Shown one piece after another: positions 15,635 to 45,203 of a stretch of DNA of 64,000 nt (positions are counted from its first letter, which is position 1; each line of letters begins with the position of its first letter). Origin of the DNA: a virus; the UHGV virus genome UHGV-0286546; one strand, 5' to 3'. Made by a program: the position numbers and the translations under genes. Below the pieces are notes generated by a model that was given only the letters and a program-made list of their open reading frames with translations, made no database searches and had not been told where the DNA came from.

Positions 15635-15640
15635 ATATAC

Positions 15641-19822: not shown

Positions 19823-20800
19823 TTAATCTAAAATATAACTATAAATACTTTTCATTCCTGGACATCCTGTTTCATCAAAAATTAACTGAAAGCAATCTCC
19901 ATTACAGTATTTAAAAAATTTACAAGTTAAACAATTTATAGATCTTTGTTTTTCTAAGTTTATTAAATTTTCTTTTATTTTTGTATCTATTTTGTCTAAA
20001 TTACCATATTTTTTATCACAAGTATTAGGACATCCTGCTATTGTACCGTCTGGATTTATAGTAATTACATCATTCATACAAGATCTATTTCTACAACCTA
20101 AGAAAATACCATTGATAGATTGTTTAATCCCTTCAAATAAAGGTATTTTAAGTTTATTATTCTTTTCGTATAGTTTATAAGCTTTTAATAACCAATTTTG
20201 TAAATCTATATTATATGGTCTTAAGTTATTATCTAAGGCTCTACCCGTATTAGTTATTCTTTCAAAATTAAAATTATATATATCTTTATCTGTAAAATAT
20301 TTAAAGATTTCTTCAGGTTCTTTTTCTTTTATTAAAATATTAGTAAGACATATAATAGGTTGTACATTTATATTATTTTCTTTTAATAACCTAACATTAT
20401 TTTCCCAAAGTTCTTGTTGATCATCTTTAAAACGTATTTTATAATCCCAAGATGTTAAAATAAAAGGATTATTATCAAAAGGTAACATCTGTTTAAAAAT
20501 ATCTAAATGTTCTTTTGTTATTTCATATATTAAGTTTGTAGTAATTGTCCATTTAAAGTTTAAATTTTTAGTTTTATATAAAAGATATTGGATATTAGAT
20601 ATATCATACATAAAAGGTTCACCTCCATGTAAATGTATATCTATTTCTTCATTATTAGTATTTAATGATTTTAAATAAATAATTACTTTTTCTAATATAT
20701 TTTTTGACATATTACTATGATTATGTAAAATTTCATTATAACAATGCTTACATTTTAAATTACAAGCGTTTGTTAATTTTATATATATAGTTTTAGTCAT
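19823..20800 (-). CDS. Radical SAM enzyme with C-terminal SPASM-type Cys clusters (325 aa)
   Basis: CNLKCKHCY (CxxxCxxC), HGGEP, TSWDYKIRF and the C-terminal clusters CRNRSC...GCPNTC...CLTCKFFKYCNGDC...GCPG. Confidence 0.8.
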   Translation of the reverse strand: MTKTIYIKLTNACNLKCKHCYNEILHNHSNMSKNILEKVIIYLKSLNTNNEEIDIHLHGGEPFMYDISNIQYLLYKTKNLNFKWTITTNLIYEITKEHLDIFKQMLPFDNNPFILTSWDYKIRFKDDQQELWENNVRLLKENNINVQPIICLTNILIKEKEPEEIFKYFTDKDIYNFNFERITNTGRALDNNLRPYNIDLQNWLLKAYKLYEKNNKLKIPLFEGIKQSINGIFLGCRNRSCMNDVITINPDGTIAGCPNTCDKKYGNLDKIDTKIKENLINLEKQRSINCLTCKFFKYCNGDCFQLIFDETGCPGMKSIYSYILD

Positions 20801-21830
20801 TATTTAATAAAAAGTAAGGTTTTAAAAATTCTTTAGTTTTTTCTAAGTCAATATCTTTTTTCTTAAATATAAAAAAATCATATAAGGTAAAGGGATCAAC
20901 AATAATACACACTGGAATACTAGGATAACCAATATAAAGAGAAGATAGTAATTGTTTATAAGATAAGCTACAAACAAAATGTCCATCGTTTGTTAATTTT
21001 AAAACGATTACTTCTCTGGGTAAATTTTCAGCCATATCTTTACAACAAAAGTTTAAATTTGTTTGATTTAATTCAACATGGCCTATAAATGCTTTGTTTG
21101 TAATATTGTAGTGTAATATCTTATTTTCAATTATAATGTTTCTATATAATTCTTTAGGTAAATTAGTATAAAGAGCATAATGTTCAAAATATCCTTCTTT
21201 TTCCGGAGGAGGAATTAAAGTATAATATTCTTTTTTTAAAATTGACCAAATAGCTTTTTCTGGTAAGTATTTAAATTCTAATTTTGGAATTTCAAAATCT
21301 TTTTTACATTTATTTAAACAAGGAGGTATATTTTCACACAAATCCATATTAAATAATAATATAGTTACATCTAATTCTCCTCTTATTTGTAAAAAATGTT
21401 TTATTACTTGAGGAAGTTGTAACGTATCTTTATTTCCATAATAATTTAATCCACATTCTTGTCTGCTTAATAATTCATTTAACGCTTCTTCTGTAATCGG
21501 TTCATATTCAGTTATATTTATATTTTTAAATTGTTTTAAATCTTCATATTTTAAAGTAATTGATAAATATTCAGATTTTGAACACCAATCCAATAGATCA
21601 TTTTTAGCAATATTTATTTTTTTGTATGAAAAGTCTAAATTATCTAAATCTAAAGCTAGTTTTCTAACTAAGTATTTTAAATAATTTATTTGATTTGAAT
21701 ATGTTTCAACAGTCCAATCTTTAGGTTCCGCATAAATATCATCTCCTTCTTCATATGAAATAGAAGGATTGTATCTTAAATTTTTATCTTCTAATATTGA
21801 AATAGGTAAAGCTTTTGCTATTTTAAGCAT
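20793..21830 (-). CDS. Hypothetical protein (345 aa) within the rSAM operon
   Basis: ORF with 8-nt and 2-nt junctions to its neighbours. Confidence 0.5.
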   Translation of the reverse strand: MLKIAKALPISILEDKNLRYNPSISYEEGDDIYAEPKDWTVETYSNQINYLKYLVRKLALDLDNLDFSYKKINIAKNDLLDWCSKSEYLSITLKYEDLKQFKNINITEYEPITEEALNELLSRQECGLNYYGNKDTLQLPQVIKHFLQIRGELDVTILLFNMDLCENIPPCLNKCKKDFEIPKLEFKYLPEKAIWSILKKEYYTLIPPPEKEGYFEHYALYTNLPKELYRNIIIENKILHYNITNKAFIGHVELNQTNLNFCCKDMAENLPREVIVLKLTNDGHFVCSLSYKQLLSSLYIGYPSIPVCIIVDPFTLYDFFIFKKKDIDLEKTKEFLKPYFLLNND

Positions 21831-21832
21831 GG

Positions 21833-22588
21833 TTATTTCTCAGTAATTAAATTTTCTACATCTGATACAAATTCTGACCAGTTTTCTTGACCCATTCCGT
21901 ATAATAACACCGAAAAAGGAGTAAATTTAAGAATAGTATCAAATAATTCGTTGTTATCTTCTGTAAAAATACTTTTATAAAAAACAGGAGTATCGTTTTC
22001 TAAAGTATCATAAATAAACATGAAGTATTGGTTACGTATAATATCACATATTGAATTATTAAAGAGTTTATCCTCAACCGTTTCTATTTCATTAAAATCT
22101 AATTTTTCATTTTTATTAAAATCTAATCTAGAAATAGGATATAAAGGTAATGAAATAATAAATCGATTGATTTCTTTTAAATAATCTTTATTGTTTTTTA
22201 TAAAGTTTTCAATTTCTTCGTTTGTTAAAATACTTTCAATTGGAAAATCTTGTTGATTATAAAAACCTATAATTTTTATCCAAGTGTTAGTACATTCTTC
22301 AAATATATATTCTATATCCCCTTTCAAATAATACAATAAAAATTGTTCTTTAAAAGAATATTCAGTATTTGAAAAATCTAAATCTATATTTGAATATCCA
22401 GTGTTCCTTAAATAAATATATGTAACTCTAATATTATCCTCTTCGTTTATATTTGGATAATTGAGGTTAGACATATCTATAATGGCACCATGTTCAGAAA
22501 TATCTGTCATTTGATTTATATCGTAAGGTAACCCTGTTTTAATTTGCATAATATTATCTACGTCCTCTATTTGAATAACAACTTCCAT
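21833..22588 (-). CDS. Hypothetical acidic protein (251 aa) within the rSAM operon
   Basis: ORF tightly packed in the operon. Confidence 0.5.
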   Translation of the reverse strand: MEVVIQIEDVDNIMQIKTGLPYDINQMTDISEHGAIIDMSNLNYPNINEEDNIRVTYIYLRNTGYSNIDLDFSNTEYSFKEQFLLYYLKGDIEYIFEECTNTWIKIIGFYNQQDFPIESILTNEEIENFIKNNKDYLKEINRFIISLPLYPISRLDFNKNEKLDFNEIETVEDKLFNNSICDIIRNQYFMFIYDTLENDTPVFYKSIFTEDNNELFDTILKFTPFSVLLYGMGQENWSEFVSDVENLITEK

Positions 22589-23246
22589 GACAATTATTAT
22601 GACATGTATAGAAATTATAAACTAATCCTCCCGCACTAAAACATTGTGATTGCCAGGTGTTATAACAGTTTGAAATTGTATTGTTCATTGAATTAGCAGA
22701 AGCTAGACCTTCTTTTACAATTTCAGTAGGAGGTGTAACATTAGGAGCTGTATTACCTTTTCTTTCCCAAAATTCCGTTTTAGATTGATTACCATCAGCA
22801 CCACCAGGAACAGCAGGAAAAGCAGTATTAAAAATACCACCACCACTTATACTTTGGATTAAATTTCTTGTACCTTCAGTTTTATGATACCAGTTTGTAG
22901 TAAAATAACGAATTTTACTTAAGGTTCGTACTATTCTTAGCATATTATCCCAAAGAGTAGAAGCTGTAATAATTTGATCAGAAATAGTCCAAGTTGGTTG
23001 TGCATCTATAGCAGCTAATTGATTACCAGGCATTGCAACAGGATTAGTCCAGCCTAATGTTGCCCAGTTTCCATTGTTACCTGTTTTACCATAATAAGCA
23101 GTACCTGTAAAATAAGGAATGTTACCACTATGATATTGAATTTTACTATAAATAGTTGCTGTAACTCTAGTATTGAATTCGTTAATAGCACCGATTAAAT
23201 TATCTCTAGAAACTTTTACAATAAGTTGTTGTGCTGGAATTGTCAT
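22554..23246 (-). CDS. Thr/Asn/Gly-rich protein (230 aa) with a Cys-rich C-terminal tail; candidate rSAM substrate
   Basis: The last 40 residues, NCYNTWQSQCFSAGGLVYNFYTCHNNCHGSCYSNRGRR, contain 6 Cys. The gene lies between rSAM genes. Confidence 0.55.
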   Translation of the reverse strand: MTIPAQQLIVKVSRDNLIGAINEFNTRVTATIYSKIQYHSGNIPYFTGTAYYGKTGNNGNWATLGWTNPVAMPGNQLAAIDAQPTWTISDQIITASTLWDNMLRIVRTLSKIRYFTTNWYHKTEGTRNLIQSISGGGIFNTAFPAVPGGADGNQSKTEFWERKGNTAPNVTPPTEIVKEGLASANSMNNTISNCYNTWQSQCFSAGGLVYNFYTCHNNCHGSCYSNRGRR

Positions 23247-23247
23247 T

Positions 23248-24171
23248 TTAATTAACCTTCATTTTATTTAACAAATAATATAGCCCTGAACAATACGGTT
23301 TATCGATTTCAATTAGATGCTCTGCTTTACATTTAGTGAAATATTTACAGTCTTTACAATTTTTATTATACCAAATCTTTTCTTCGTTACAAAAATCTTT
23401 CCACTGCTGCAAGGTTTGAAATTCAACCGGATACTCTATACTTTCTTTATATTTAATTGAACTGAAATTGCCGTTTGGATTAAGAAAAACGAAACTATCT
23501 GCTAAAGGTGAATACTTTGAATCTCTTAGAATTATTTCATTACAAATAGTAAATTTATAATTATGTTTATTCTTTTCATGTATAATTTTATCTAAAAATA
23601 AAATATAATCCTTTGTAGTAATATTATAAACTTTTTTTGAATAAATTGAAGGATGATACTGTATAAAATTTACATCAAAACCCAATTCTTCATACATGTC
23701 TAGCAAAGTAAAAATGTTTTCGTTGAGTAATGACGGTAAAACGACAACAGATAAACTAATTATTGGTAAATGTTTAAAGTTTTTTAAATTTAACAATGTT
23801 TTTTCATAAAAAGGTCTTTCCTTATTTAAGGATATACCACAATTACAATTATTTAATAAACAGAATTCTAAAATTTTAGTATTAGAAAAATTTGTAATAA
23901 AGGTAGGTTTTATATTTTTTATTAATTGATACAAATCATATAAATACGAATCATCTAATAAAGATATTTCTCCACCATATATTGTAGAGCTTTCAATTAT
24001 ATATTCTTTTTGTAATTCAGTTAATCTAGTTGATAATTTTTCCAAAGATAATAAATTTTTATTTTTTGTTAAATTACCTAAATAACAGTATTCACAACTG
24101 TAATTACAATAAAAAGAAGGCATAATAGAAATATTACTTAATGTTTTTAGCATTTTTATATTCTTCGACAA
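23248..24171 (-). CDS. Radical SAM enzyme (307 aa) with a twitch/SPASM-like C-terminus
   Basis: CNYSCEYC, YGGEISLL and C-terminal CKDCKYFTKCKAEH...CSG. Confidence 0.75.
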   Translation of the reverse strand: MSKNIKMLKTLSNISIMPSFYCNYSCEYCYLGNLTKNKNLLSLEKLSTRLTELQKEYIIESSTIYGGEISLLDDSYLYDLYQLIKNIKPTFITNFSNTKILEFCLLNNCNCGISLNKERPFYEKTLLNLKNFKHLPIISLSVVVLPSLLNENIFTLLDMYEELGFDVNFIQYHPSIYSKKVYNITTKDYILFLDKIIHEKNKHNYKFTICNEIILRDSKYSPLADSFVFLNPNGNFSSIKYKESIEYPVEFQTLQQWKDFCNEEKIWYNKNCKDCKYFTKCKAEHLIEIDKPYCSGLYYLLNKMKVN

Positions 24172-25219
24172 AATTATTGTTGTTTTCTAAAAATTCGTAC
24201 AATTGTTTAAAAGGACAATTTGTAGTTTTATAATTTTTGTATAGAATAGAAGTCCAACAAAAGCGTGGACATTGCATAAAGTATTTACAGTAGACGCATC
24301 CTCTTTTATTTTTACCTAAATTTGCTTTTATTTGTGAAACATTGTCTTCTGATATTTTTAAATTTCCATAAAAGTCTTCGTTTGGTAAAATAGATGATGT
24401 TTTTACACAGTTATATGTTACGCAATCTTTACACGCAGAAAGATGCTTATGACAACCACATATAAATTCTTTTTCTCTTTCTGGAAAACAAAAACTGTTT
24501 AAAATTTTTTGTAAATCTAATATATTATAAAATTTATTGATTAAACAGGTTTTAAAGAATAAGAAAAGATCATCGTCACTAGGTAAGAGAGTTTTCCAGT
24601 TTATATTTGGAATGTAATAATTAATGTCTATTTTTTGTGTAAATTGTAAGTTTTGTAAATGGGTTAAATTATTACAATATTCAAGTATATTAGGTTTTGT
24701 AAGTGTAATTGATATTTCTTCCAATAGATTAAGAGAATTAAAGTACTTTGCATTTGTTAGCATTAAATTTTTTTGTTCTTCTGTTTTAAATCTATCTATT
24801 GGATCGTAACTTATATTTAATTTACTGTTTGTATCGTGTAATAGTTTTAAAACTCTATCAGTCTTTTTATATACACCATTAGATACCCATAAAAAGATTA
24901 AAGTAATATCTGGAAAGACTTCTTTGAATACTTTTTTGAAATTTGAAATTAGTTTCCTATATTCATCAAAAAGGGTATCCGGTAAAGCATCATAAAATAG
25001 TTCACCACCCCACATTCTAATAGCAATCTCTTTTGTATTTGGATATTTTTTATATTCTTCTTTAAATCTATCCACTAAAAGTTGAGGTATAGAATGAATC
25101 CAATTTAAATCTATTTTAGTATTTTCATGCGCTTCTAAACAAAATTTGCATCTTAAATTACAAGCTTCGAATAAAATACAATCAAAACCAAAACGTATAT
25201 CTTGAGAACTAGTAACCAT
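24134..25219 (-). CDS. Radical SAM enzyme (361 aa), CNLxCxFC subfamily
   Basis: CNLRCKFC, WGGELF, ISYDPIDRF and C-terminal clusters CGCHKHLSACKDC...CVYCKYFMQCPRFC. Confidence 0.75.
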   Translation of the reverse strand: MVTSSQDIRFGFDCILFEACNLRCKFCLEAHENTKIDLNWIHSIPQLLVDRFKEEYKKYPNTKEIAIRMWGGELFYDALPDTLFDEYRKLISNFKKVFKEVFPDITLIFLWVSNGVYKKTDRVLKLLHDTNSKLNISYDPIDRFKTEEQKNLMLTNAKYFNSLNLLEEISITLTKPNILEYCNNLTHLQNLQFTQKIDINYYIPNINWKTLLPSDDDLFLFFKTCLINKFYNILDLQKILNSFCFPEREKEFICGCHKHLSACKDCVTYNCVKTSSILPNEDFYGNLKISEDNVSQIKANLGKNKRGCVYCKYFMQCPRFCWTSILYKNYKTTNCPFKQLYEFLENNNNFVEEYKNAKNIK

Positions 25220-26321
25220 TTCGCCAATCCAAATAATCTATTAAAACTTCTTTATTGTTTTCAATATACTCATAAACTCTTTTATAAGGACAAATCGTAG
25301 GTTTAAACTTATTAAAAACAATTGCAATCCAACAAAACATTTGACATCTGTTGTAATACTTACATGTTAAGCATCCTCTTTTTTGTAAACCTAGGGTTGC
25401 TTTTATCTTATTTGTATTTTCTTCTGTAATGTTTTGTGTATATTCACCATAAAAACTTTCGCGTGGTAATAAAGAACTGCAAGTTGCACAATCTACACTC
25501 CATTCACCGTGTGTAATTTGAGAACAATATTGACAATCACAATATTTCGAAATGTTATCTTTACAGAAATATTGGAATAGCCTTTCTAATACTTTAATTT
25601 CATATAATTTGTTTTTAATAGCCCATTCAAAAAAGCTAAATATCTCTTCGTCAGTTGGCAGCAATTCTTCCCAGTTTGGATTTGCGATATAATAATTTAA
25701 ATCTATATTATATCCGAGTTCTTTGAAATACTTTAAATGTGATTTATCATTTATAAAAGCTTGAATTGAAGATTTTGTTAAAGTAATTGATATTTTCTTA
25801 CCAACATTATTTTCTTTAAAATATTTAGCAGATTCTAGCATAGTATTCAATTGAGTTTTAGTTTTAAATCTATTACAAGGATCATAACTCAAATTGATTA
25901 TACCTTTTGAATAATTTACTAGATCTAATACTCTTTTTCTTTTATTGAATACTCCGTTAGAAAGCCAAGAGAACAGAATATTAAGTTTAGAGAAATGTAA
26001 TTTAAAAAGAGAATTTATATTATCAACAAATTTATAATAACTATTAAAAATTTCATCCGATAAAGAATCGAAAAAGATTTCTCCTCCCCATAACATTAAA
26101 TATACAGTTTTTATAGAAGGATATTTTTCATATTCTTTTCTAAAATTATCATAAATAATGGTATGTAAATTTTCAATGTATTTAGTATCTATCTTTTTGT
26201 TTATGTGTGATTCAAAACAAAAATTACATTTTAGATTACAATTTTCAAAAAACATACAGGCAATTTCATATGATTCTGGCTCTTTGTAAAAAGGTATAAT
26301 TGGAGGAGTTACTTTTTCCAT
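25209..26321 (-). CDS. Radical SAM enzyme (370 aa), CNLxCxFC subfamily
   Basis: CNLKCNFC, WGGEIF, LSYDPCNRF and a Cys-rich C-terminus. Confidence 0.75.
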   Translation of the reverse strand: MEKVTPPIIPFYKEPESYEIACMFFENCNLKCNFCFESHINKKIDTKYIENLHTIIYDNFRKEYEKYPSIKTVYLMLWGGEIFFDSLSDEIFNSYYKFVDNINSLFKLHFSKLNILFSWLSNGVFNKRKRVLDLVNYSKGIINLSYDPCNRFKTKTQLNTMLESAKYFKENNVGKKISITLTKSSIQAFINDKSHLKYFKELGYNIDLNYYIANPNWEELLPTDEEIFSFFEWAIKNKLYEIKVLERLFQYFCKDNISKYCDCQYCSQITHGEWSVDCATCSSLLPRESFYGEYTQNITEENTNKIKATLGLQKRGCLTCKYYNRCQMFCWIAIVFNKFKPTICPYKRVYEYIENNKEVLIDYLDWRNGY

Positions 26322-27385
26322 TGTAAATACCTCTTAATAATATCTGGATTATTCTTTATATACTGTCTTATTTTTCTATGCGGGCATTCTTGTAAAATGT
26401 AATCTTCATGACAAAGCTGCATCCAACAGTACATACTACAATTATTATAATGTTCACATAAAAAACAATTTCTTTTTGTCATACCTTTCTTAGTTATATA
26501 TTCTACTGCATCTTCTTCTTTTATATGTTTAAAATCTTTTCCATAAAATTGAATTAAATCTAAAGAAGGAATATAAACATTACAGCTATAATGTAATTTA
26601 TTTTCATAAAAAATGACTGTATTTTTACAATTACATGCTTTCGTTATTTTTTTATTTGAGTCTAAAGTATTTTCAAGTAAACTTTGTAAATAAATACAAT
26701 TAAAAATGTCATTATCTAATAAAGTCTTAAAGAATATAAAAATATCTTCGTCTGTCGGTAGTAAAAAATCTTTATTTTTTGTTGGTACATAGTTATTGAT
26801 ATCTAAGTTTATATTTTCAAATACTTTTAGCTGTTTTGGATCTTCAACATAGTTTTTTATTGCAGGTTTTGTTAAGGTAATAGCAACGTTTTCGATTAAA
26901 TTGTTATTTTTTAATTCATTGAAGTTATTTATAAATAATGATCTTTGTTTTTTTGAAGTAAAGCGTCCAAAGGAATCATAAGATAGGGTTATCTTAGAAT
27001 TTATATCTTTTAAAAAGTTTATTACTCTTTCTATATTATTATAAATACCATTTGACATTACATGACATTGTATTTTAATTTTATGAGTAGAGTACTGAGA
27101 TAAAATGATATCTTTGTAGGCATTTATAAATTCATCAGAAATGCTATCTTGAAATAGTTCGCCACCTCGAATAGAAAGTTTTAAGATTTTAGTGTTTGGA
27201 TGTTTTTTTAAGAGTGCTGATATAAGTAAATTTAGCCTATTAGGTAAACTCTTTAAATAATCTATACTTATTTCTTTTTGTGTATGATTTTGAAAACAAT
27301 GTAGACAATTTAAATTACATTTTTCTAACAGTACACAATCTATTGAAAGAGTATTATTTTTTAATGTTTCGTAATCTATATTCAT
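26309..27385 (-). CDS. Radical SAM enzyme (358 aa), CNLxCxxC subfamily
   Basis: CNLNCLHC, RGGELF, LSYDSFGRF and C-terminal CFLCEHYNNCSMYC. Confidence 0.75.
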   Translation of the reverse strand: MNIDYETLKNNTLSIDCVLLEKCNLNCLHCFQNHTQKEISIDYLKSLPNRLNLLISALLKKHPNTKILKLSIRGGELFQDSISDEFINAYKDIILSQYSTHKIKIQCHVMSNGIYNNIERVINFLKDINSKITLSYDSFGRFTSKKQRSLFINNFNELKNNNLIENVAITLTKPAIKNYVEDPKQLKVFENINLDINNYVPTKNKDFLLPTDEDIFIFFKTLLDNDIFNCIYLQSLLENTLDSNKKITKACNCKNTVIFYENKLHYSCNVYIPSLDLIQFYGKDFKHIKEEDAVEYITKKGMTKRNCFLCEHYNNCSMYCWMQLCHEDYILQECPHRKIRQYIKNNPDIIKRYLQWKK

Positions 27386-28172
27386 GATAAAGTGTTTTTG
27401 GAAAACTACATTCTTTTTGTAAAATGCAAGGCTTACAAATATTTGCCAGCTTACAACTTAAACATTGTTGTAAAACATTAGTTTGTGTATATTGGGGACA
27501 TCCCTTTTTCAATATTCCACTCGGTGTTAAGGTATATGTTTTAGAACAATCACAATTCCAATCAATTAAATTTTCGAATAAAAGATTTTTAAATGAAAAC
27601 GACCAATCTTTAGATATTTTACATAACCAATTATCAACTCTTTCGTAAAATTCAGCTTTTTTAGAATTATCAACTAATTGTTCAAATTTTACACCAGTTA
27701 TAGACTTTATCTTATCCAGTTTACTCAATATTGTTAAAAAGGTATTATAATCACAATTTATTAAGTCTTCCGTTAAAGTAATTAAAATAATACAAGAAAG
27801 GTTGTATTGTTCCAATAGTTTTAAATTGTCTATCCAAATATCAAATTGTTTCGGGGTGAATCTAGTTTGATTCCAAGAGGTAGCAATATCTAAATCATAA
27901 TCTTTTATTAATTTTAGAGAAGTTGCATTTAATAATAATAGATTGGTTGAAATAGAGCTTATTTTTTTTGTTTCTAGGATAGGTATTAATTTTTCTTGTA
28001 GTAACAACGGTTCTCCACCAAACAGTATCCCACGGTCGAAAAAAAGTGTCTTTAATTGTGATATAAATACAGATTCATTATATCTTTCTACTTTTTTATG
28101 TAATTCGCAGTGTGGACAGTCTAAATTACAAGAGTATGTTGGAATGATGTATAATTCTTTTATAGTTTCCAT
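27354..28172 (-). CDS. Radical SAM enzyme (272 aa)
   Basis: CNLDCPHC, FGGEPLL, TSWNQTRF and C-terminal CDCS...GCPQ...CLSCKLANICKPC. Confidence 0.75.
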   Translation of the reverse strand: METIKELYIIPTYSCNLDCPHCELHKKVERYNESVFISQLKTLFFDRGILFGGEPLLLQEKLIPILETKKISSISTNLLLLNATSLKLIKDYDLDIATSWNQTRFTPKQFDIWIDNLKLLEQYNLSCIILITLTEDLINCDYNTFLTILSKLDKIKSITGVKFEQLVDNSKKAEFYERVDNWLCKISKDWSFSFKNLLFENLIDWNCDCSKTYTLTPSGILKKGCPQYTQTNVLQQCLSCKLANICKPCILQKECSFPKTLYHEYRLRNIKK

Positions 28173-29116
28173 CCTGTCCTCATAATTATTTCTTTTCTTT
28201 TGAGCATTTCTGCGCAGTGATTTTTAGTTTGCTTGTTTGTGTTTCTTAAAGAGGTACAGGCATTACACAAATTACACAATTCACAGGTCAAGCATTTTTC
28301 ACTTAATAAAGTATTTATATCTAATTTTTCTTTAGTTGGTATTACTTTTTTTGTGTCGAGTGGTAAAGTCAAGCCAGAAGTTCCACAATCTTCACACCAA
28401 CTGTATGTAATTTCATTTGTATTAGATAGCCAAAATGCTCGAATGGTTGATTTACAGGAGAGATTGGTATTAAAGTTACATCCTCCATTATAAAATTGTA
28501 TTTTGGTATCTTGATATTTATCTAATCCTAATTCTTTAGCTTTTAACCATATATCAATCATTTTATATAAAGGATAAAAATTTTTTGATTTACCAAGAGC
28601 TAACGTCATGTTTAATTTACATTTGGTGTTTAATTTTTTGGCTAAATGTAAGTGATCTAATGCTTGTTTTTCGTTTGCATTGTTTATAAGACTGATAAAA
28701 GGTGGTACATATCCAATTCTTTCTTTGAACATAGTCATGACTTTAATAAACATTTCTTCGGTATATGGTGTATTTTTATCCCACAATCTATCATTACCAT
28801 ATTGAAAAGAAGTACCAATGCCTAACCTTTTATTTTTAAATAGATTTTCCCATTTCTCGGGATAAAAATAAAAATCCTTTAAATTCGTTGTAAAAGCAAT
28901 GTTAAATTCACCGAGTGTTAGTATTTCTTCGTAATAACTTGGATTAACACATAAAGGATCACCACCAGTAAATATTAATCCATCTGGTTTTATAGTATTA
29001 ATTACTTTTTTTAATTCTTCTGGAACTTTTGTCTGATGTTTTATATTAAGAAGACCAGCACTACAGAAAGTACAATTAAAGTTACAGCGACCAGTCGGTT
29101 TTATTATTAGTTCCAT
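28160..29116 (-). CDS. Radical SAM enzyme (318 aa)
   Basis: CNFNCTFC, FTGGDPL and C-terminal CEDCGTSG...CLTCELCNLCNAC. Confidence 0.75.
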   Translation of the reverse strand: MELIIKPTGRCNFNCTFCSAGLLNIKHQTKVPEELKKVINTIKPDGLIFTGGDPLCVNPSYYEEILTLGEFNIAFTTNLKDFYFYPEKWENLFKNKRLGIGTSFQYGNDRLWDKNTPYTEEMFIKVMTMFKERIGYVPPFISLINNANEKQALDHLHLAKKLNTKCKLNMTLALGKSKNFYPLYKMIDIWLKAKELGLDKYQDTKIQFYNGGCNFNTNLSCKSTIRAFWLSNTNEITYSWCEDCGTSGLTLPLDTKKVIPTKEKLDINTLLSEKCLTCELCNLCNACTSLRNTNKQTKNHCAEMLKRKEIIMRTGWKL

Positions 29117-29501
29117 CGATTAGAAATTCCTTTTTAAAGTAATTTATTGTCTTAAGTATAGAGTTATATTGCCAGATGTTTCCTATTTTTAGGAGAATTT
29201 TGTCATATTCTTTTTTATATTTACTGTATTTGTAGTCTTTAAAATATTTATCATCTGGTAGTAAGTCGTCATCATCTAATGCTTCATAAAAAGGTACTTT
29301 AAAAAATTCTTCTAAACATTTAGCATAAATAATGGCTACAAATATAGTTTTTGCTGGATAGACTAATTTAGATTCTGTTTTAAAAAATTTAATTACTTGA
29401 TTAGGTATGTTTTTATAATTAACCGTATAAGGTAAATTTATATCATCCCACTCATGTAATAAATATGATAATTGTCTTTTTTCTAATAGAGTTTTATTCA
29501 T
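29082..29501 (-). CDS. Hypothetical protein and first gene of the leftward rSAM operon (about 139 aa from the ATG at 29501; the track extends to a TTG at 29567)
   Basis: ORF. The ATG choice leaves about 70 nt of divergent intergenic space containing TAAAGTTCTAG and TATAAT-like elements. Confidence 0.45.
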   Translation of the reverse strand: MNKTLLEKRQLSYLLHEWDDINLPYTVNYKNIPNQVIKFFKTESKLVYPAKTIFVAIIYAKCLEEFFKVPFYEALDDDDLLPDDKYFKDYKYSKYKKEYDKILLKIGNIWQYNSILKTINYFKKEFLIDGTNNKTDWSL

Positions 29502-29523
29502 GTTTACTAGAACTTTAGAGTTT

Positions 29524-29540
29524 AGTTCTATTATAATAAG
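29524..29540 (+). promoter_or_regulatory. Promoter-like element AGTTCTATTATAATAAG, containing TATAAT, about 35 nt upstream of 29572
   Basis: The TTCT-WW-TATA pattern recurs upstream of other first genes of units (16497, 31390, 34045, 43476, 45474, 48498). Confidence 0.3.
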
Positions 29541-29571
29541 ATCTTTAAAATATATTGGGATATACAAATAA

Positions 29572-38697: not shown

Positions 38698-39650
38698 GAC
38701 ATCATCTTTTCAATCATTTGTTTATCACAAATTACACAACCGTCACAATCACTATATGCATGATAGTTTTTAAGATGACCGCATTCTGCTAATTCTGTTT
38801 CACTAGAGATATGATCTAATTCTACTTCTGCATTTGAATCTTTGTGGCGTGTATTTAATTGCATGGAAGTATCTTCACTATTACCATTACGATAAAGGGT
38901 ATCTGCTCTATATTTAATATTAAAAAGTTTATCCCACATTATTGGAGATTCTTCTGTTCTGAATTTTTTAAGAAATTGTAAGAATTTTTTTCTAGGAGGT
39001 ACAAAACCAGGTAATTTCTTATTCATTTCCTGTAAAGTAATATTACTGGCTCCGCATTGTTTAAAGAAAAACGAGGTATGATATTCTTCCATCATCTTTT
39101 TGAAGGATAGCTCACCAGAAAGATATTTATCGATACAATCTTCTGATAAAATTGTTGTAGTATTAAATAAAATTTCTGGATATAATTTATGGATATTTTT
39201 CATGTGATAACTCCAATTCTCTTCCATTTTTGGAGTATGAAATCTACCTAGTGTATCATAAGAAGTTAATACCCACAATTCACCTTTATGACCTTCAAAT
39301 AAATCTAGTGTTTCATATAAATCTTTTTGATCACCAATAGTAAGTGTAGCATAAATCCAAACGTGTGAAACAATTCCTTCTTTTAATAATTCAGCGGTCT
39401 TTTTCATCAGATTCATAAAAGCTTTTTTGACTTCTGGATTAGACATTTGACCTTGAAAGAATTCACCTCCCAAATAGGAAAGTGTATCATATTCTGGATA
39501 TAAGGATAAATCAGAAATTTTTTCGAGTGCTTTTTCGCAGGCTTTAATTTTAAGATGGTCTGGTGTAAATCTGTTTTCTGTACCTAAATAACAAAATTTA
39601 CACAACGAATTACACTGTTCCCATAGTTCGAATTGTAATTGTTTTTGCAT
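38694..39650 (-). CDS. Radical SAM enzyme (318 aa), LWxDC subfamily
   Basis: FELWEQCNSLCKFC, LGGEFF, TSYDTLGRF and C-terminal CGHLKNYHAYSDCDGCVICD. Confidence 0.75.
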   Translation of the reverse strand: MQKQLQFELWEQCNSLCKFCYLGTENRFTPDHLKIKACEKALEKISDLSLYPEYDTLSYLGGEFFQGQMSNPEVKKAFMNLMKKTAELLKEGIVSHVWIYATLTIGDQKDLYETLDLFEGHKGELWVLTSYDTLGRFHTPKMEENWSYHMKNIHKLYPEILFNTTTILSEDCIDKYLSGELSFKKMMEEYHTSFFFKQCGASNITLQEMNKKLPGFVPPRKKFLQFLKKFRTEESPIMWDKLFNIKYRADTLYRNGNSEDTSMQLNTRHKDSNAEVELDHISSETELAECGHLKNYHAYSDCDGCVICDKQMIEKMMS

Positions 39651-39663
39651 TGAATTCCCCTCA

Positions 39664-40509
39664 TTAATTTTTGTAATCGATTAAAGATAATTTTTCGATT
39701 TTTCCTGTCGATAATAATTTAATATTTTCTTTTAACATTCTTTTTTCATTAGATTCTAATAAATCTAAACTGGGTAAGTTTGCTTCATTTGTAAAGATAT
39801 TCCATTTTGTTATATCTTCGTTCAATATAGTTTTTATTGGTACATTTTGAGGTTCAATCTCTAAGGGAGCAAAGTAAGATTCTCCTACAAGAGAAATGGT
39901 ATTTTTAATGATTGGTTTTTTAGAAAGCCAATTACCATCTTTGTCAACCATCGCTAAAAACCAATCTGAATCGTCTAATAAAACAATATCGTTGTTTCTA
40001 TTTATAGCATAATCCGAAAATTTATTAATACAATCTCTAATTACTTTTAAATCATAAACGTCTGGATAAGTTTCTTGGATTTGTTTAATAATAAGCTTTA
40101 ATTTTAATTTACTTTCCAAAATTTTTAATGTTTTTCCCCAATTTAGTAACAATTCTTCAAACGATAAGTCTTCTGGTGAGCAAACTTTTAAAATTTCTCT
40201 TTGTTCTACTTGGTATAAGATTCCATCGTTTTCTATTGTTTTAACATACCAATGAATATTAAAAACTTCTCTGTATATTTCTGCTAATTTCTCTCGTATT
40301 TTTTCAAAAAATCTACCCGAATGTCTATCGATAGTGTATACTTTATAGAAATAATCTTTTGTTCCTATGACTAATTGATGTTCGTAATCTTTCCATTTTA
40401 CTGATAATTCTGGATGAACATTCTCATCTAAAGATCGAATAATACTAAAAAATTTTTTAGTCGATGTTTCTTTTAAATCGAGTTTTTTCCAAGAAATTAA
40501 TTCATTCAC
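39664..40509 (-). CDS. Hypothetical protein (281 aa)
   Basis: ORF between two rSAM genes. It overlaps the upstream gene by 4 nt. Confidence 0.5.
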   Translation of the reverse strand: MNELISWKKLDLKETSTKKFFSIIRSLDENVHPELSVKWKDYEHQLVIGTKDYFYKVYTIDRHSGRFFEKIREKLAEIYREVFNIHWYVKTIENDGILYQVEQREILKVCSPEDLSFEELLLNWGKTLKILESKLKLKLIIKQIQETYPDVYDLKVIRDCINKFSDYAINRNNDIVLLDDSDWFLAMVDKDGNWLSKKPIIKNTISLVGESYFAPLEIEPQNVPIKTILNEDITKWNIFTNEANLPSLDLLESNEKRMLKENIKLLSTGKIEKLSLIDYKN

Positions 40510-41432
40510 AAAAAGGCTTCTCCATCTAAATTTTCTAAATCACAAAGCATGCATTTATCTGAATCTGTATAACATTTATATAGAACAGAATGTCCACATT
40601 TAGGATTTATATCTTCTTTTCCGTCTGTTAGTTTTGGTGCTTCTGTATAATCATTTGATCCTCGTTCTTTTACACCTGTATATTTAAAAACACATGAATT
40701 TTTTGTAGATTGTAAAAATGATAGATATACAACCGGATTTGCACTTTTTAAGTATCTAATAAATCGTAAGAAGTCAGAACGTTTGAAATTAAAATCAGGA
40801 AGTGTATAACCTGTTTCGATTGGGTGTGGATATAAAAAGCATAATTGATTGCCCGGAATGTTTTCTTCAATAAACTTATTTACATCAAAGTTATTATTTT
40901 TCCATTCATCTATAACGTACTGGGTGAGTATCATTTGAACACCAACGCTATAATTATACTTTTTATGAAAGTCGTTGATATTCTTTAAACAGAGTAATCT
41001 AGCTTTTTCGTCTTTGAATCTGTATTTTAAATCATAAGAAAAGTTAATATCTACTTTTTGTATACCAACTGCATTAACAATTTTATCAATTACTTTATAT
41101 AAAAACTCCGGATTATAAAGTCCGTTCGTAACAGTCGAATATCTACACTCTGGATTTTTTGATACTTTTAAAACTTTTTCGATAATAAGATCAATTAATT
41201 CTAAAAAGGAATCTTGTACTTCTTTATCTTGAATGAAATATAATTCACCGCCGAGAAGTGAAATACCATAACTAAATTGATTTTCCCAATCTACATAATC
41301 TAAGTTTTTCTTAATTTTATTTAATTGCCAGAGCTGTTTTTCTTTAGAATATGGAATTCTTTCTCGGCGTAAACAAAACTTACATTCGTTGCAGCAATTA
41401 GACCAAACCGCATATTGAACCATATTTCCCAT
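40506..41432 (-). CDS. Radical SAM enzyme (308 aa), LWxDC subfamily
   Basis: YAVWSNCCNECKFC, LGGELYF, FSYDLKYRF and C-terminal CGHSVLYKCYTDSDKCMLCD. Confidence 0.75.
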   Translation of the reverse strand: MGNMVQYAVWSNCCNECKFCLRRERIPYSKEKQLWQLNKIKKNLDYVDWENQFSYGISLLGGELYFIQDKEVQDSFLELIDLIIEKVLKVSKNPECRYSTVTNGLYNPEFLYKVIDKIVNAVGIQKVDINFSYDLKYRFKDEKARLLCLKNINDFHKKYNYSVGVQMILTQYVIDEWKNNNFDVNKFIEENIPGNQLCFLYPHPIETGYTLPDFNFKRSDFLRFIRYLKSANPVVYLSFLQSTKNSCVFKYTGVKERGSNDYTEAPKLTDGKEDINPKCGHSVLYKCYTDSDKCMLCDLENLDGEAFL

Positions 41433-41451
41433 CTTTTTAGTATTTTCCTTT

Positions 41452-42006
41452 TTATGATAATGTATATGATATTTTTACCGGAACTACACGTATATATCCT
41501 TCATTTCTAACCATAATAGAAATTAAATTTTCAATAATAAGTTTAGTATCTGAAACATCTATCATTTTTTCAACAGAAGGTACGTTTTTAATCCAATCTG
41601 ATTCGTTTGCCCAATATATTAAGTATTTGACTAGTGAAGAAGTATCTTTATTATAGCGTGAAGATACAAAAGCCAATTTGGTTGCAGCGAAACATGCCAA
41701 ATTGTTTAAATACGGATAAAAATCTTCTGGTGCTATTATTCCAGAAGGTGAACCAATAACTTGTAAAAACGCAGTCATATCTGTATCTACTTTTGATGTA
41801 GGAATAGCAAATTTAACAGGACTACTAACAATACCAGTTACTTTTTCAACATATGCCCCACTACCAGAAGAGGCGGCTTCAAATTTAAAACCGTCTTTAA
41901 CACAAGCATGCATACCACCATAATTAGCAATGTTTGCGCAATTGGTTTTCATCCAATTTTTTACAAGGTCACTCAAAGACTGATAGGTTATCGTTGGTAA
42001 CGGCAT
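41452..42006 (-). CDS. Protein Q2 (184 aa), paralog of 30253..30804
   Basis: Its start lies 1 nt after the P2 stop (the same TAAATG junction). It has the shared N-terminal motif and ends in SYTLS. Confidence 0.55.
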   Translation of the reverse strand: MPLPTITYQSLSDLVKNWMKTNCANIANYGGMHACVKDGFKFEAASSGSGAYVEKVTGIVSSPVKFAIPTSKVDTDMTAFLQVIGSPSGIIAPEDFYPYLNNLACFAATKLAFVSSRYNKDTSSLVKYLIYWANESDWIKNVPSVEKMIDVSDTKLIIENLISIMVRNEGYIRVVPVKISYTLS

Positions 42007-42753
42007 TTAAATATCCATATATGCTATAAAACTTGAAGATGATGATGAACTACTTGATGAACTACTAGAAGAAGACGAGCTTGAAGATGAACTACTAGAA
42101 GAACAAATATAAGATAAAACAGTAGAAATCAAATGAGTATTATTTGTTGTACCTAATGCATTTAATAGATCTGTCAAAGAACTATTTACTTCTGAAGGTG
42201 AAATGTCAATAGAAGTAGAATTTAGACTACACGTCGGAAAAGATGTTGCTTTTGAATTATAAAATATACGCGTTTCACCAGTAATAGCGCTTGTGACATA
42301 AACTAATTTTATAGACATAAAAGATGCTAAGTTATTATAAAATGCTAACATAGTTTTATATGAAACCGGTGTATTTGACTTTTCATATATAGCACGCGAC
42401 TTTAAAAATGATAATAATTGATTTTCAACTGTTGAAGCTGGAACAGCAATAAGTAAAGAATCATTTATTGTTTCTTTAACAGTTGAAGTATGTGCACTCC
42501 TTGCAACATTTCGAAATCCTGTTGCTGACATTTTTGTTTCGGAATAGGTTTTGCTTATTCTATTAATAATTTGACCATTCTTAAAAGTTGTTGGTAAATT
42601 AGGATTTAAGCTATCTAAGTTTACACAACTCGTTTTTAAAACTTTAAGTGCATGTTTGATTAAGTCGTCATAGGTTACTACGGTGTTTTCATTCAGCATC
42701 TTTGCTTTCCTTGATAGTTTCAGTATCTTTAATCTCTTTAGCAAAATTTTCAA
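42007..42753 (-). CDS. Poly-Ser-tailed protein P2 (248 aa): 24 consecutive Ser, then FIAYMDI
   Basis: Translation; Ser codons span about 42031..42102. It is a paralog of P1 and the Ser tract is preceded by YIC. Confidence 0.6.
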   Translation of the reverse strand: MKILLKRLKILKLSRKAKMLNENTVVTYDDLIKHALKVLKTSCVNLDSLNPNLPTTFKNGQIINRISKTYSETKMSATGFRNVARSAHTSTVKETINDSLLIAVPASTVENQLLSFLKSRAIYEKSNTPVSYKTMLAFYNNLASFMSIKLVYVTSAITGETRIFYNSKATSFPTCSLNSTSIDISPSEVNSSLTDLLNALGTTNNTHLISTVLSYICSSSSSSSSSSSSSSSSSSSSSSSSFIAYMDI

Positions 42754-43393
42754 ATAAATTTAAACCGACTGAATTCTTTAAGAACAAAGCGCTTAAGCAT
42801 TCCATAGCATCAATTATATATGGACAGCTCGCTGTATCAAATTGTTCACCTGCAGCAAAAATACCAGATAATGTATAAAAATCTGTACTTAAAATAATTG
42901 ATTTGTATGCAGCAGGCAAGGATATATATTCGTCGGTTGGTAAAAAAGTGGTCTTGCTATAAGATTTAATTAAAGAAATAAAATACATTGATAATTGTTT
43001 AGAAAATATATTTAATTCATCTCGTACTTCTAACCTAACGTCGATTAGATCATCTATTTCATTAAAGTAAATATTTTCATCTTCAAAAAAGGAATCTTCT
43101 AAGGTATTATATACTTTAACTAAATTTATGATGTTAAGGAGCATTAAAGGATCTTTTAATGTTTCTCTACTTAACGAAATACGTAAAGCTTCAATAATTA
43201 AATCAATATTTAAATTTTTTAACCTTGTAAGAATAATATCTTTGAACTCATCAGACTCTTCTAAAGTATAGATTTTATTCAAATTGTCTAAGAGTTCGTC
43301 GGTTGTAATATTTTTATCAAAAGAAATAGTATATTCAGTTTGTTCTTCTAGTGATTTTTTTGTAATGTTTGCTTTTACAAGGTTTAAATTCAT
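42689..43393 (-). CDS. Acidic protein R2 (234 aa), paralog of 33282..33947
   Basis: Shared blocks with R1. It overlaps P2 by 65 nt in a different frame. Confidence 0.55.
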   Translation of the reverse strand: MNLNLVKANITKKSLEEQTEYTISFDKNITTDELLDNLNKIYTLEESDEFKDIILTRLKNLNIDLIIEALRISLSRETLKDPLMLLNIINLVKVYNTLEDSFFEDENIYFNEIDDLIDVRLEVRDELNIFSKQLSMYFISLIKSYSKTTFLPTDEYISLPAAYKSIILSTDFYTLSGIFAAGEQFDTASCPYIIDAMECLSALFLKNSVGLNLFENFAKEIKDTETIKESKDAE

Positions 43394-43416
43394 AACAAAT
43401 ACCGTCCTTTTTGGGT

Positions 43417-43444
43417 TGTTCTTATAGATATATTATATTGAACT
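43417..43444. promoter_or_regulatory. Palindromic AT-rich element TTGTTCTTATAGATATATTATATTGAAC in a divergent promoter region
   Basis: GTTC and GAAC form inverted ends around a TATA-rich core. It lies about 50 nt upstream of 43476 and about 25 nt upstream of the 43393 start. Confidence 0.3.
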
Positions 43445-43475
43445 AAAAAACGAAAGTAATCCTAAGTAGATTTTA

Positions 43476-44387
43476 ATGAAAACAGCAATTCGTATTGAAC
43501 TCATACCACTATATCGTTGTAATGAAAATTGTAATTTTTGTTTATATCAGCATGAAAAAAATAACAAAAATACAGCAGATTTAGCATGGATAGATTCAAC
43601 CTTAACTTCATTGCACTTTAAGTATGATATTCTTCAAATAAAAATTACTGGAGGTGAAATATCTTTACTTTCAGACTTTTACTTTGAGATGCTATTTAAC
43701 TTATTAAAAATACATTGCAAAAAAATCATTGTAGAAACCAATTTCGTTGAATTTAAGAAGGCTTTAATTAACAACTGTGATATAATAAACATAGGATATA
43801 ATTTCAATAATAATCCTTTACAACAGCAGATTTTTAATAATATTAAAGCGGCTACAGCAACTGGAAAAAGTATAAATATAAAGTCCTTAGATATTTTTTG
43901 TAAAATAAATCATAATCAAATTATAAATCATTTAAATTCACTTAAAATTAAATCCTGGGAGATTATACCTTTTCATCAGACACCATTTACATTATATAAA
44001 TTTAGAGGATATTCAGAGTATGAAAAGATTGTTGCTGAATATCTTAAATTGTCAAACAAGATGAAATTTGCTTTTCAAAATAAATTACAACTAGAGAATA
44101 TTTTAAATCTTGATAACTATAACGTTAAAACAGTATATTTAACTCCTAATAATAAACTTGCTCTACAAAATTTTGATAATGATAACAACTTTTTCTTAGA
44201 AGAATTTGATAATGTTGAAGATTTATCTAAAAAAATGAAAGAAACGGAAAAAAAGAAAGATAAATTTTGTGAAAAGTGCACTTCTAAATTACAGTGTATG
44301 GCAAATAGTTTTATGAATTTGAATTATACCGGACTCTCATGTAGTGGATTTAAAGATTTAATAAATAAGCATAAAGGTGGGCTGTAA
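43476..44387 (+). CDS. Radical SAM enzyme (303 aa), divergent member
   Basis: YRCNENCNFC, TGGEISLL and C-terminal CEKCTSKLQCMANS...CSGF. Confidence 0.7.
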   Translation: MKTAIRIELIPLYRCNENCNFCLYQHEKNNKNTADLAWIDSTLTSLHFKYDILQIKITGGEISLLSDFYFEMLFNLLKIHCKKIIVETNFVEFKKALINNCDIINIGYNFNNNPLQQQIFNNIKAATATGKSINIKSLDIFCKINHNQIINHLNSLKIKSWEIIPFHQTPFTLYKFRGYSEYEKIVAEYLKLSNKMKFAFQNKLQLENILNLDNYNVKTVYLTPNNKLALQNFDNDNNFFLEEFDNVEDLSKKMKETEKKKDKFCEKCTSKLQCMANSFMNLNYTGLSCSGFKDLINKHKGGL

Positions 44388-44954: not shown

Positions 44955-45203
44955 ATGTCAACTAGGGAAGTAATGATTCCAACAAATAAACATTTTTGTG
45001 ACATTTGTGGAAAAGAAATTGAAGGTGTAACGTGGACATCTGCGTGCGGTTATATTTTATCTTATGAAAATGAAGATTATGCATTAGATTTAGATATTTG
45101 TCCTGATTGTAAAAAGAAATATGAAAATTTAATCAAAGGCGAATTACGAGCAAAATTAGTAGAAGTATTCAAAAAGTTAAAGGAAAAACACGATGCAGAA
45201 TGA
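44955..45203 (+). CDS. Small zinc-ribbon protein (82 aa)
   Basis: CDICG...CPDC, two CxxC pairs. Confidence 0.5.
   Translation: MSTREVMIPTNKHFCDICGKEIEGVTWTSACGYILSYENEDYALDLDICPDCKKKYENLIKGELRAKLVEVFKKLKEKHDAE

Follow-up and report, generated by a model that had tools for sequence, protein, structure and literature searches.

Positions 19823 to 44387 of a 64,000-nucleotide stretch of viral DNA (UHGV virus genome UHGV-0286546; the whole stretch is called the window here) encode fifteen radical S-adenosylmethionine (radical-SAM) enzymes, of which 13 are paralogs within a single divergent clade, one stands apart from these and one is RimO/MiaB-like. Interleaved with them are non-enzymatic proteins, among them two families with unusual C-termini, one ending in Cys-His-x-Ser units (the CH-tail) and the other in a long Ser run, and the co-occurrence of enzymes and tails is both tight and widespread. 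On balance, we favour the reading that the locus is an expanded radical-SAM maturation system acting on the tails of virion proteins, probably by cross-linking them; the chemistry, the cross-linking, the tail as substrate and the biological role of the locus are what we infer from the observations that follow.

An N-terminal CxxxCxxC triad was present in 15 of the 30 open reading frames (ORFs; named here by their first coordinate) of at least 100 amino acids (aa) within 19823-44387 and in none of the 37 elsewhere in the window, which is the number given in a first-pass annotation of the sequence. The Cys content was 2.9% inside this interval and 1.0% outside. As also annotated, all but one of the fifteen proteins fall within 270-370 aa (272-370 aa, the exception having 436 aa), whereas the GGE block ascribed to all of them was found in 13, with GGD in 28160 and neither motif in the methylthiotransferase-like 36890. 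Only 19823, 28160 and 36890 exceeded the gathering score of the radical-SAM profile PF04055; ten ORFs matched it below threshold (E values of 2e-6 to 6e-3), and 34045 and 38694 did not match. In an all-versus-all BLASTP comparison, 13 ORFs formed one paralog network and 28160 and 36890 stood apart; 34045 and 38694 were counted as radical-SAM proteins because this paralogy ties them in. Further support for the ORFs that Pfam missed came from a clade profile (A5), built from the weakest clade and its relatives on other contigs, in which C20/C24/C27 and G63-G64-E65 are invariant and which matches solved radical-SAM/viperin chains (E ~5e-6). The Cys triads were also retained in homologous phages, in every orthologue of the related contigs L001, L003, L006, L008 and L010. 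The proposed radical-SAM identity is thus upheld for the whole set: the triad is found in 15 of 15 ORFs and GGE or GGD in 14 of 15, and Pfam or NCBIfam matches together with paralogy link them all. Membership of the viperin (pVip) family was rejected, since only the first ~90 of 257 profile positions match and the PADLOC assignment reflects a generic likeness of the radical-SAM core.

The canonical SPASM pattern CX2CX5CX3C...C was recognized in 19823, 35877, 24134, 25209 and 26309, in variant form in 27354 and partially in 23248 and 43476; the other seven ORFs have different Cys patterns. The statement that most of the enzymes show SPASM/twitch-like spacing was therefore too broad and about half true, as a clear pattern exists in about six of them and a single one, 35877, passed the SPASM model TIGR04085 (29.4 versus a cutoff of 27). 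The enzyme encoded by 19823..20800 (minus strand, 325 aa; PF04055, 41.5 bits), which neighbours the CH-tail gene, aligned over its full length with the models of DynA (E 4e-18), PapB, anSME and YhhB and also matched GrrM and DarE, all below their cutoffs; among solved structures, the one nearest to 19823 is that of CteB (5wgg), which forms thioethers. 35877..36893 (plus strand, 338 aa) shares 30% full-length identity with 19823, and the two scored 25-65 bits against SPASM maturase models with equivalog cutoffs of 340-650. Sequence comparison thus supports the assignment of several array enzymes to the SPASM type, in which they would resemble peptide or protein maturases. Like the known SPASM maturases (PapB and CteB, which form thioethers; DynA, DarE, YhhB and FxsB, which form cyclophanes; and anSME), 19823 and 35877 carry the seven-Cys pattern and match over the full length, and the known substrates are repeated short motifs with a Cys or aromatic residue; unlike those systems, the candidate substrate here is a folded protein of ~230 aa, with no recognizable RRE domain or leader peptide.

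This candidate substrate, the CH-tail protein, is encoded by 22554..23246 (minus strand, 230 aa) and consists of a novel alpha/beta domain followed by the tail TCHNNCHGSCYSNRGRR; its orthologues retain Y-x3-T-C-H-x2-C-H ... R-x-R-R at the extreme C-terminus. A profile search of 1.84 billion representative proteins returned 94 clusters, 88 of which terminate in 2-4 C-H-x-x units followed by R-[GS]-R-R. Since alignment-based locus searches yielded no conserved blocks, the tail was also sought as a DNA pattern, (CHxx)3-RxRR-stop, which was found in at least 120 viral contigs; 118 of the 120 listed hits are the true ends of ORFs of 124-364 aa. Conservation extends to positions that the pattern leaves free, since 112-128 of 141 tails have Ser at -13, -9 and -5 and Gly at -3, giving the consensus V-C-H-x-S-C-H-x-S-C-H-x-S-R-G-R-R, and the chance level of the pattern was ~9 hits in 596 Gb of genome sequence, all in high-GC DNA. 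An AlphaFold2 model of 22554 computed from a 68-sequence alignment (a five-sequence alignment gave a mean confidence, pLDDT, of only 33) was confident for the domain and of low confidence for the tail, a contrast that fits an exposed, flexible tail peptide. We take the tail as the substrate because of its co-occurrence with the enzymes, its accessibility and the analogy with known maturases. A tandem type was seen in many viral contigs (GC 0.35-0.39; L016, L050, L083, L102 and L103 among them), in which two successive genes for tail proteins of 124-140 aa precede as many as 5-8 radical-SAM genes in a span of 13 kb; its N-terminal domain is unlike that of 22554, and a tblastn search of cultured phages with a 126-aa query of this type gave no match.

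At least one CxxxCxxC ORF was found in 105 of the 120 listed tail loci, within the few kb available for each. When the ORFs of the fetched tail loci were clustered, the tail family was represented in 112 loci and the main radical-SAM cluster, which takes in 12 of the window's enzymes, in 104; two further radical-SAM clusters exist. In the gene maps inspected, the gene directly downstream of the CH-tail gene belongs to one of three mutually homologous clusters (c3 in 70 loci, c16 in 13 and c19 in 9; hhalign probability 97-99). Its counterpart in the window is 21833..22588 (minus strand), an acidic protein of ~250 aa in cluster c19 (hhalign 99.1 to c3 and 97.1 to c16) whose family is a candidate chaperone or scaffold. 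Another recurrent member is the small protein encoded by 29082..29501 (minus strand, ~139 aa; phrog_20737, cluster c9), found in 22 viral loci and in cassettes of Bdellovibrionota; the ORF extends over 29082-29567, and the start at 29501 is probable because the L002 orthologue is called at 139 aa. Comparison of the profiles of these two families with Protein Data Bank (PDB) sequences gave nothing meaningful and no solved relative of the 21833 family. The other groups of the cassette are a ~365-aa family, a Cupin_2 protein and several 2-oxoglutarate (2OG)-Fe(II) oxygenases; no cupin or oxygenase homologue was found in the window.

The leftward part of the array (19.8-29.5 kb, minus strand; module 1) contains all the signature members of this cassette, namely the CHxS tail with R-[GS]-R-R, the 19823-type SPASM enzyme and the 21833 and 29082 families. 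Its enzymes also comprise 23248..24171 (307 aa, c6 type with a partial CX2CX5C...C; c6 occurs in 34 loci, often paired with the c9 protein); the SPASM paralogs 24134..25219 (361 aa), 25209..26321 (370 aa) and 26309..27385 (358 aa), supported by motif, Pfam, BLASTP paralogy and Cys pattern; 27354..28172 (272 aa), with the variant SPASM-like pattern, supported by motif, Pfam and Cys pattern; and the distinct 28160..29116 (318 aa), which carries GGD and a C-terminal CX2CX2CX2CX2C, scores 60 bits with PF04055 and has no BLAST link to the paralogs. None of the 94 metagenomic homologues of 24134 bears a functional name. The remaining gene, 20793..21830 (345 aa, nine Cys), has no Pfam, NCBIfam or PHROG match and keeps the same position in L001, L003, L006 and L010; it was rejected both as a degenerate radical-SAM enzyme (by hhalign) and as a member of the ~365-aa c5/c14 families. 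Related contigs maintain the order 29082-, 28160- and 27354-like genes, ~360-aa SPASM paralogs, and 23248-, 22554-, 21833-, 20793- and 19823-like genes. In the comparison with L010 (10001-16686), the flanking genes are 96-100% identical and the central genes from 26309 to 20793 just 41-83% identical at the protein level. This divergent core between near-identical flanks suggests cassette exchange or rapid diversification and would fit a role in an arms race or in host recognition. Genes for tail, baseplate or large structural proteins are often neighbours of the cassette, and the radical-SAM cassettes of pelagimyophages lie inside a hypervariable 'host recognition cluster' (PMC7029224). In L006, an IS605-type element (14324-16058; a resolvase/MerR-like ORF and OrfB/TnpB, Cas12f-like) separates the 21833-like and 20793-like genes. 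A gene of the tRNA-His guanylyltransferase family (Thg1-like) was observed near the cassette in L003 (17914-18723; contig of ~280 kb), L004 and L005. The gene order of L177, a 249-kb contig with a GC of 0.28 binned with a Bacilli metagenome-assembled genome (MAG), is almost the same as that of module 1; this could point to the group of the host, or the contig could be a jumbo phage that was binned wrongly.

The CH-tail also occurs in the cultured jumbo phages Atu_ph07, RSL2/RSF1 and SURPRISE13, where an orthologue of 19823 (full-length identity of 29-32%, with E values from 1e-31 to 1e-41) is encoded immediately upstream of the tail gene (gp171/gp170 in Atu_ph07 and gp71/gp72 in SURPRISE13, and likewise in RSL2 and RSF1). 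The clusters of RSL2, RSF1, FLC, SURPRISE13 and Atu_ph07 contain the same cassette in similar order, with orthologues of 19823, the CH-tail protein, 21833 and 29082, but they have 3-4 radical-SAM genes together with cupin and 2OG-Fe(II) oxygenase genes, whereas the window has 15, no oxygenase and an additional poly-Ser module. Published descriptions list the cassette genes only as accessory or hypothetical (PMC11898562, PMC5468394), and the tail protein of the jumbo-phage cassettes is annotated as hypothetical only.

For Atu_ph07, a virion proteome is available in which Gp170 is listed as a hypothetical protein of 31.89 kDa with eight unique peptides and 35.16% coverage, whereas the enzymes encoded next to it, gp169, gp171 and gp172, do not appear there (PMC6102473, Table S5). 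The translation of FDI40_gp170 has 296 aa and 31.89 kDa and ends in FCHSSCHASCHNSRSRR, the C-terminal end of Atu_ph07 gp170 being CHSSCHASCHNSRSRR; the translated masses of gp176 and gp177 likewise agree with the proteome table. Gp170 was recovered from gel slices 1-9 with its peak in slice 1, and reference proteins in the same table place 127-137 kDa in slices 1-2, 66 kDa in slice 4, 41 kDa in slice 5 and 28 kDa in slice 7 (PMC6102473, Table S5). The slice-1 peak and the reference proteins therefore indicate that gp170 forms part of the particle and that, even after sodium dodecyl sulfate treatment at 95 C, it migrates well above the size of the monomer, for which covalent cross-linking may be one explanation.

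A genome scan for the tail pattern yielded ~38 true cassettes, ~27 of them in Bdellovibrionota (Bdellovibrio, Bacteriovorax, Halobacteriovoraceae and Pseudobdellovibrionaceae), including contigs of 1.3-2.8 Mb; the remaining cellular hits are MAG contigs and may be mis-binned phages. The Bdellovibrionota loci (L148, L151, L154-L160, L164-L166, L168-L170, L173, L174, L176, L179-L181, L183, L184, L186, L187 and L189) encode the tail protein, radical-SAM enzymes, the c3 and c5 families, c9, a cupin and oxygenases, and their neighbours are ordinary bacterial genes (a signal-peptidase-II-like gene, lipoprotein genes and a prepilin-like gene). Such a cassette in the chromosomes of predatory bacteria was unexpected, and it links two ways of attacking bacterial cells. 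Some of the Bdellovibrionota versions add an ORF of ~600 aa that resembles a B12-binding radical-SAM enzyme.

The second family of candidate substrates belongs to module 2, which occurs twice in the window (29.6-38.2 kb and 43.4-38.2 kb). The long form of its family A is encoded by 29572..30252 (plus strand), ending in 29 consecutive Ser and TFIAYMDI-COOH, and by 42007..42753 (minus strand), ending in 24 Ser and FIAYMDI-COOH. The Ser runs (30136-30222 and 42031-42102) interleave all six Ser codons and so avoid a DNA repeat; this mixed codon use argues for selection on the protein and against slippage as the origin of the run. Each long form is accompanied by a paralog without the Ser tail, the short form (30253..30804, plus; 41452..42006, minus, assigned by paralogy), and by an acidic protein of family B (33282..33947, minus, 221 aa; 42689..43393, minus, 234 aa; 53% identity). 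Homology of the CH-tail family to the poly-Ser family A was rejected (hhalign probability 0.9). A tail of the form C-S(n)-[MIV]FIAY[MQ]xx was found in nine other contigs of low-GC jumbo phages (38-287 kb). Seven contigs with the exact FIAYM[DE]I share an order in which the family-B protein comes first, followed by the poly-Ser gene and then by the tail-less paralog and radical-SAM genes of the 31390/34045 type, and L014 and L015 have two tandem poly-Ser genes followed by two radical-SAM genes. Relative to L010, 29572, 30253 and 33282 are insertions (29570-30717 and ~33367-33873), and L010 retains the adjacent radical-SAM genes. Of the non-enzymatic families that the first-pass annotation described as interleaved with the enzymes, the CH-tail family and the poly-Ser-FIAYMDI family each look substrate-like.

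The enzymes of the module-2 clade lack the SPASM pattern in 31390..32268 (plus, 292 aa; motif, paralogy and A5 profile) and further comprise 34045..34971 (plus, 308 aa), which has no Pfam match alone but is 50% identical to 34964 and covered by the A5 profile; 34964..35875 (plus, 303 aa; motif, sub-threshold PF04055 and paralogy); and 38694..39650 (minus, 318 aa) and 40506..41432 (minus, 308 aa), both supported by motif, paralogy and clade profile. The RimO/MiaB-like, methylthiotransferase-type enzyme 36890..38200 (plus, 436 aa) scored 165 bits with TIGR00089 (cutoff 251), and the match stops at profile position 364 of 429. Its radical-SAM core matches, and its nearest solved structures are those of RimO, itself a protein-modifying enzyme (2qgq and 4jc0, E 4e-17), but with a score below the family cutoff and its C-terminal TRAM domain unmatched it does not show the UPF0004/radical-SAM/TRAM architecture of the MiaB/RimO family.

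From these data we propose that module 1 would be a rich version, without oxygenase genes, of a cassette common to many phages and Bdellovibrionota. Its substrate would be 22554-23246, with a folded, fast-evolving N-terminal domain and a flexible tail ending in (Cys-His-x-Ser)n-Arg-Gly-Arg-Arg. 5'-Deoxyadenosyl radicals generated by 19823 and its paralogs would abstract hydrogen from tail residues and install covalent links, the candidates being a Cys thioether or a His-to-C-beta bond of cyclophane type in each CHxS unit, and the other module-1 enzymes might add further tailoring. Once matured, the protein would become part of the virion, probably of its tail, baseplate or host-recognition apparatus, where covalent bonds may connect it to partners. 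Module 2 would act in a similar way on proteins ending in 24-29 Ser and FIAYMDI, using a non-SPASM radical-SAM clade and the RimO-like methylthiotransferase 36890. The peptide or protein maturation system envisaged in the first-pass annotation thus gains support from the full-length alignments of 19823 with the DynA, PapB, anSME and YhhB models and from interleaved non-enzymes that look like substrates, the CH-tail protein being a candidate. A bolder version, which we hold only tentatively, is that the radical-SAM enzymes (with the cupin and 2OG oxygenases in aerobic hosts) install a covalent staple of a hitherto undescribed kind on the (CHxS)n-RGRR tail and thereby fix a variable protein of recognition or penetration in the tail or baseplate of the virion, and that Bdellovibrionota use the same device in prey entry.

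Several points weigh against a maturation system of this kind. Most paralogs lie under the curated family cutoffs, so that a reaction can be assigned to no enzyme, and no RRE/PqqD-like domain, protease or exporter was detected in the region. Modification of any CH-tail or poly-Ser tail is itself something that we infer, and Cys and His are classic metal ligands, so binding of a metal or an Fe-S cluster could be all that the tail does. The source for the high mass of gp170 is a single published table of gel slices, and aggregation or carry-over could account for the value; the virion location is that of a distant homologue, related to 22554 mainly by its tail and fold (BFVD match). Loci without oxygenases have a mean of 4.6 radical-SAM genes versus 2.7 in loci with them, with locus lengths that differ, and the counts of the two gene types show no correlation (Spearman rho ~0); the idea that extra radical-SAM genes replace the oxygenases in an anaerobic host is accordingly a weak one.

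The closest functional precedent for whole-protein maturation by radical-SAM enzymes is the bacterial HXS system, in which the modification amounts to +8 Da on SHRSS plus cleavage, with the chemistry undefined (Nat Commun 2026, PMC13128918). There, HxsA, with its five basic HxS repeats, undergoes maturation by a pair of radical-SAM enzymes together with a small protein and blocks the entry of phage DNA (PMC13128918). The CH-tail protein could by extension be matured into an HXS-like effector that blocks DNA entry by competing phages (superinfection exclusion) and serves antiphage defence in Bdellovibrionota. In the CHxS-RGRR tail, too, basic residues accompany HxS units, and the cassette includes a conserved small partner (29082) and varies between near-identical phages, all of which would suit such an effector. 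We nevertheless consider it quite unlikely, because the HxsA/B/C/D models were not reached (best scores 15-25 bits against cutoffs of 268-370; HxsB, TIGR03978, 25 versus 370; HxsC, TIGR03977, 20 versus 268), the NCBIfam HxsA and HxsD models gave no match up to E 0.1 with 22554 and none up to E 0.01 with 29082, and 22554 has neither a signal-peptide-like N-terminus nor a detectable peptidoglycan-binding domain. Moreover, the Atu_ph07 homologue is a virion protein and the cassette usually lies among tail and baseplate genes, whereas the HXS effector is a periplasmic defence protein. Both systems share a whole-protein substrate, tandem His-x-Ser units with basic residues and, in HXS, at least two radical-SAM enzymes with a small partner, but the units here are C-H-x-S with a period of four at the extreme C-terminus and end in RGRR, unlike HxsA in period and position, and up to 15 radical-SAM genes are encoded by phages or predators.

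That the enzymes instead have a target other than protein (such as phage DNA bases, tRNA, a cofactor or a sugar), with the tail proteins as mere structural or metal-binding neighbours, is in our view unlikely. Radical-SAM enzymes do take part in phage DNA hypermodification (PMC8989533, PMC10516641), 36890 resembles tRNA/protein methylthiotransferases, most paralogs fit no family and a Cys/His tail could be a metal site; yet no QueC/D/E, transglycosylase, kinase, glycosyltransferase or nucleotide-metabolism match was found among the scanned ORFs of the region, the best family likenesses are to peptide maturases, and the tail protein and 19823-type enzyme stay adjacent from Agrobacterium jumbo phages through the window to Bdellovibrionota. 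If the locus were a classical system for RiPPs (peptides made by the ribosome and modified after translation) or a cofactor, the C-terminal 16 residues would be a multi-core peptide that is modified and cleaved off as a bioactive product or a redox or metal cofactor (compare PQQ and mycofactocin). The C-terminal position of the motif, its repeat number of 2-4, the likeness of the SPASM enzymes to RiPP maturases and the many tailoring enzymes, with cupins and 2OG oxygenases in most versions, agree with this; we judge it decidedly improbable, as the N-terminal domains are folded, diverse and long (124-364 aa), the reverse of a conserved leader and a variable core, the whole protein is found in virions with 35% coverage, and the candidates of 183-248 aa have folded domains in a region without a PqqD, protease, exporter or other transporter family. 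An auxiliary metabolic role, boosting the anaerobic metabolism or Fe-S enzyme capacity of the host, has been proposed for CP220 (PMC2853527), and marine phages with 12 radical-SAM genes also have Fe-S assembly genes (PMC5332604), but none of the 15 ORFs reached the cutoff of any metabolic radical-SAM equivalog and the phage-specific paralogs are tied to dedicated non-enzyme proteins, which makes this explanation most improbable.

Phages with multiple radical-SAM genes have been noted before (PMC2853527, PMC5332604, PMC7029224), and such genes are annotated in cultured jumbo phages. Their abundance has been known since 2010 (CP220, marine T4-like phages and pelagimyophages) without a proposed substrate, and a testable one can now be offered: a conserved C-terminal Cys-His-x-Ser tail family that is almost always beside the enzymes, occurs in cultured phages and has been detected in virions. 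In the literature searched, which left most subscription journals outside, we found no description of the CHxS-RGRR or poly-Ser tail families, of their link to the enzymes or of their occurrence in Bdellovibrionota, and none of a Bdellovibrio radical-SAM system or of radical-SAM cross-links in virions. If the tail is modified, radical-SAM protein maturation would extend from small peptides and one bacterial defence effector to proteins of virus particles, new cross-link chemistry could emerge, and the recurrent hypervariable cassette in host-recognition regions would be explained. Should the tail indeed be stapled into the particle, no radical cross-link installed by an enzyme would precede it among virus particles, and it would point to a 'cell-entry' module common to phages and bacterial predators.

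The window belongs to an uncultured, AT-rich lineage of large phages with contigs up to ~240-280 kb. Its GC content is ~22-34%, with the minimum over the radical-SAM array, and its close relatives are metagenomic contigs only, including one of 100.7 kb that is 98% identical to the window, the mosaic L010 (239.8 kb) and further relatives of 62-280 kb. The first-pass annotation had mentioned many radical-SAM genes in Campylobacter phages of the CP220 group, correctly so (11 in CP220 and 12 in CPt10, role unknown; PMC2853527), and had suggested that the window might belong to that lineage. This origin was dropped. A megablast search of 50,697 phage records with 19823-44387 gave no match; the top portal matches are proteins of Xanthomonas and Pseudomonas phages and cyanophage portals, at 23-25% identity; and, a few faecal contigs apart, all tblastn matches of 24134 and 19823 are jumbo phages, with Agrobacterium, Sinorhizobium, Ralstonia, Burkholderia and Pseudomonas as hosts and no Campylobacter phage among them. 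The attribution was therefore wrong. CP220 and CPt10 are likewise AT-rich large phages of myovirus type with 11-12 radical-SAM genes, some in an exchangeable module, but no DNA or protein relationship to the window was detectable, and no nucleotide or core-protein similarity to CP220-group genomes supports membership of the Eucampyvirinae.

Four operons with gene overlaps of 2-40 nt had been described for the array. Same-strand neighbours do overlap by 4-38 nt or abut, but the rightward operon is broken by the minus-strand gene 33282-33947. Besides the genes already described, the array contains 43476..44387 (plus, 303 aa), a radical-SAM enzyme of c6 type with a partial SPASM pattern, supported by motif, paralogy and cluster; 30816..31334 (plus, 172 aa, function unassigned), which has no family match and is conserved in L002 and L010; 32272..33285 (plus, 337 aa), without a match in Pfam, NCBIfam, PHROGs or PDB sequences; 38197..38697 (minus, 166 aa), without a family match; and 39664..40509 (minus, 281 aa), without a match in Pfam, NCBIfam or PHROGs. 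Among the non-enzyme ORFs of the array, comparison with these three collections revealed no curated family other than phrog_20737 and a weak phrog_35144, both of unknown function.

The flanks of the array are phage-like and encode a portal, GroEL, SbcC/SbcD and proteins resembling tail fibres. The GroEL-like chaperonin gene is full-length (11668-13314, minus; phrog_5725, E 2e-127) and lies within the phage structural region. Just upstream of the array are 14135-15634 (minus, 499 aa), which matches phrog_1745 and a metallophosphoesterase family, and a ClpP-like protease gene (15641-16384, minus; Pfam CLP_protease is recorded on the L002 orthologue). An 82-aa ORF with two CxxC pairs, zinc-ribbon-like, follows the last radical-SAM gene (44955-45203, plus), and a SbcC-like and SbcD-like nuclease pair is located directly downstream of the array (45474-48364, plus). 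Further on, 53636-59183 (plus) encodes two big tail-fibre-like proteins of 890 and 923 aa, with repeat motifs common to many PHROG tail-fibre families.

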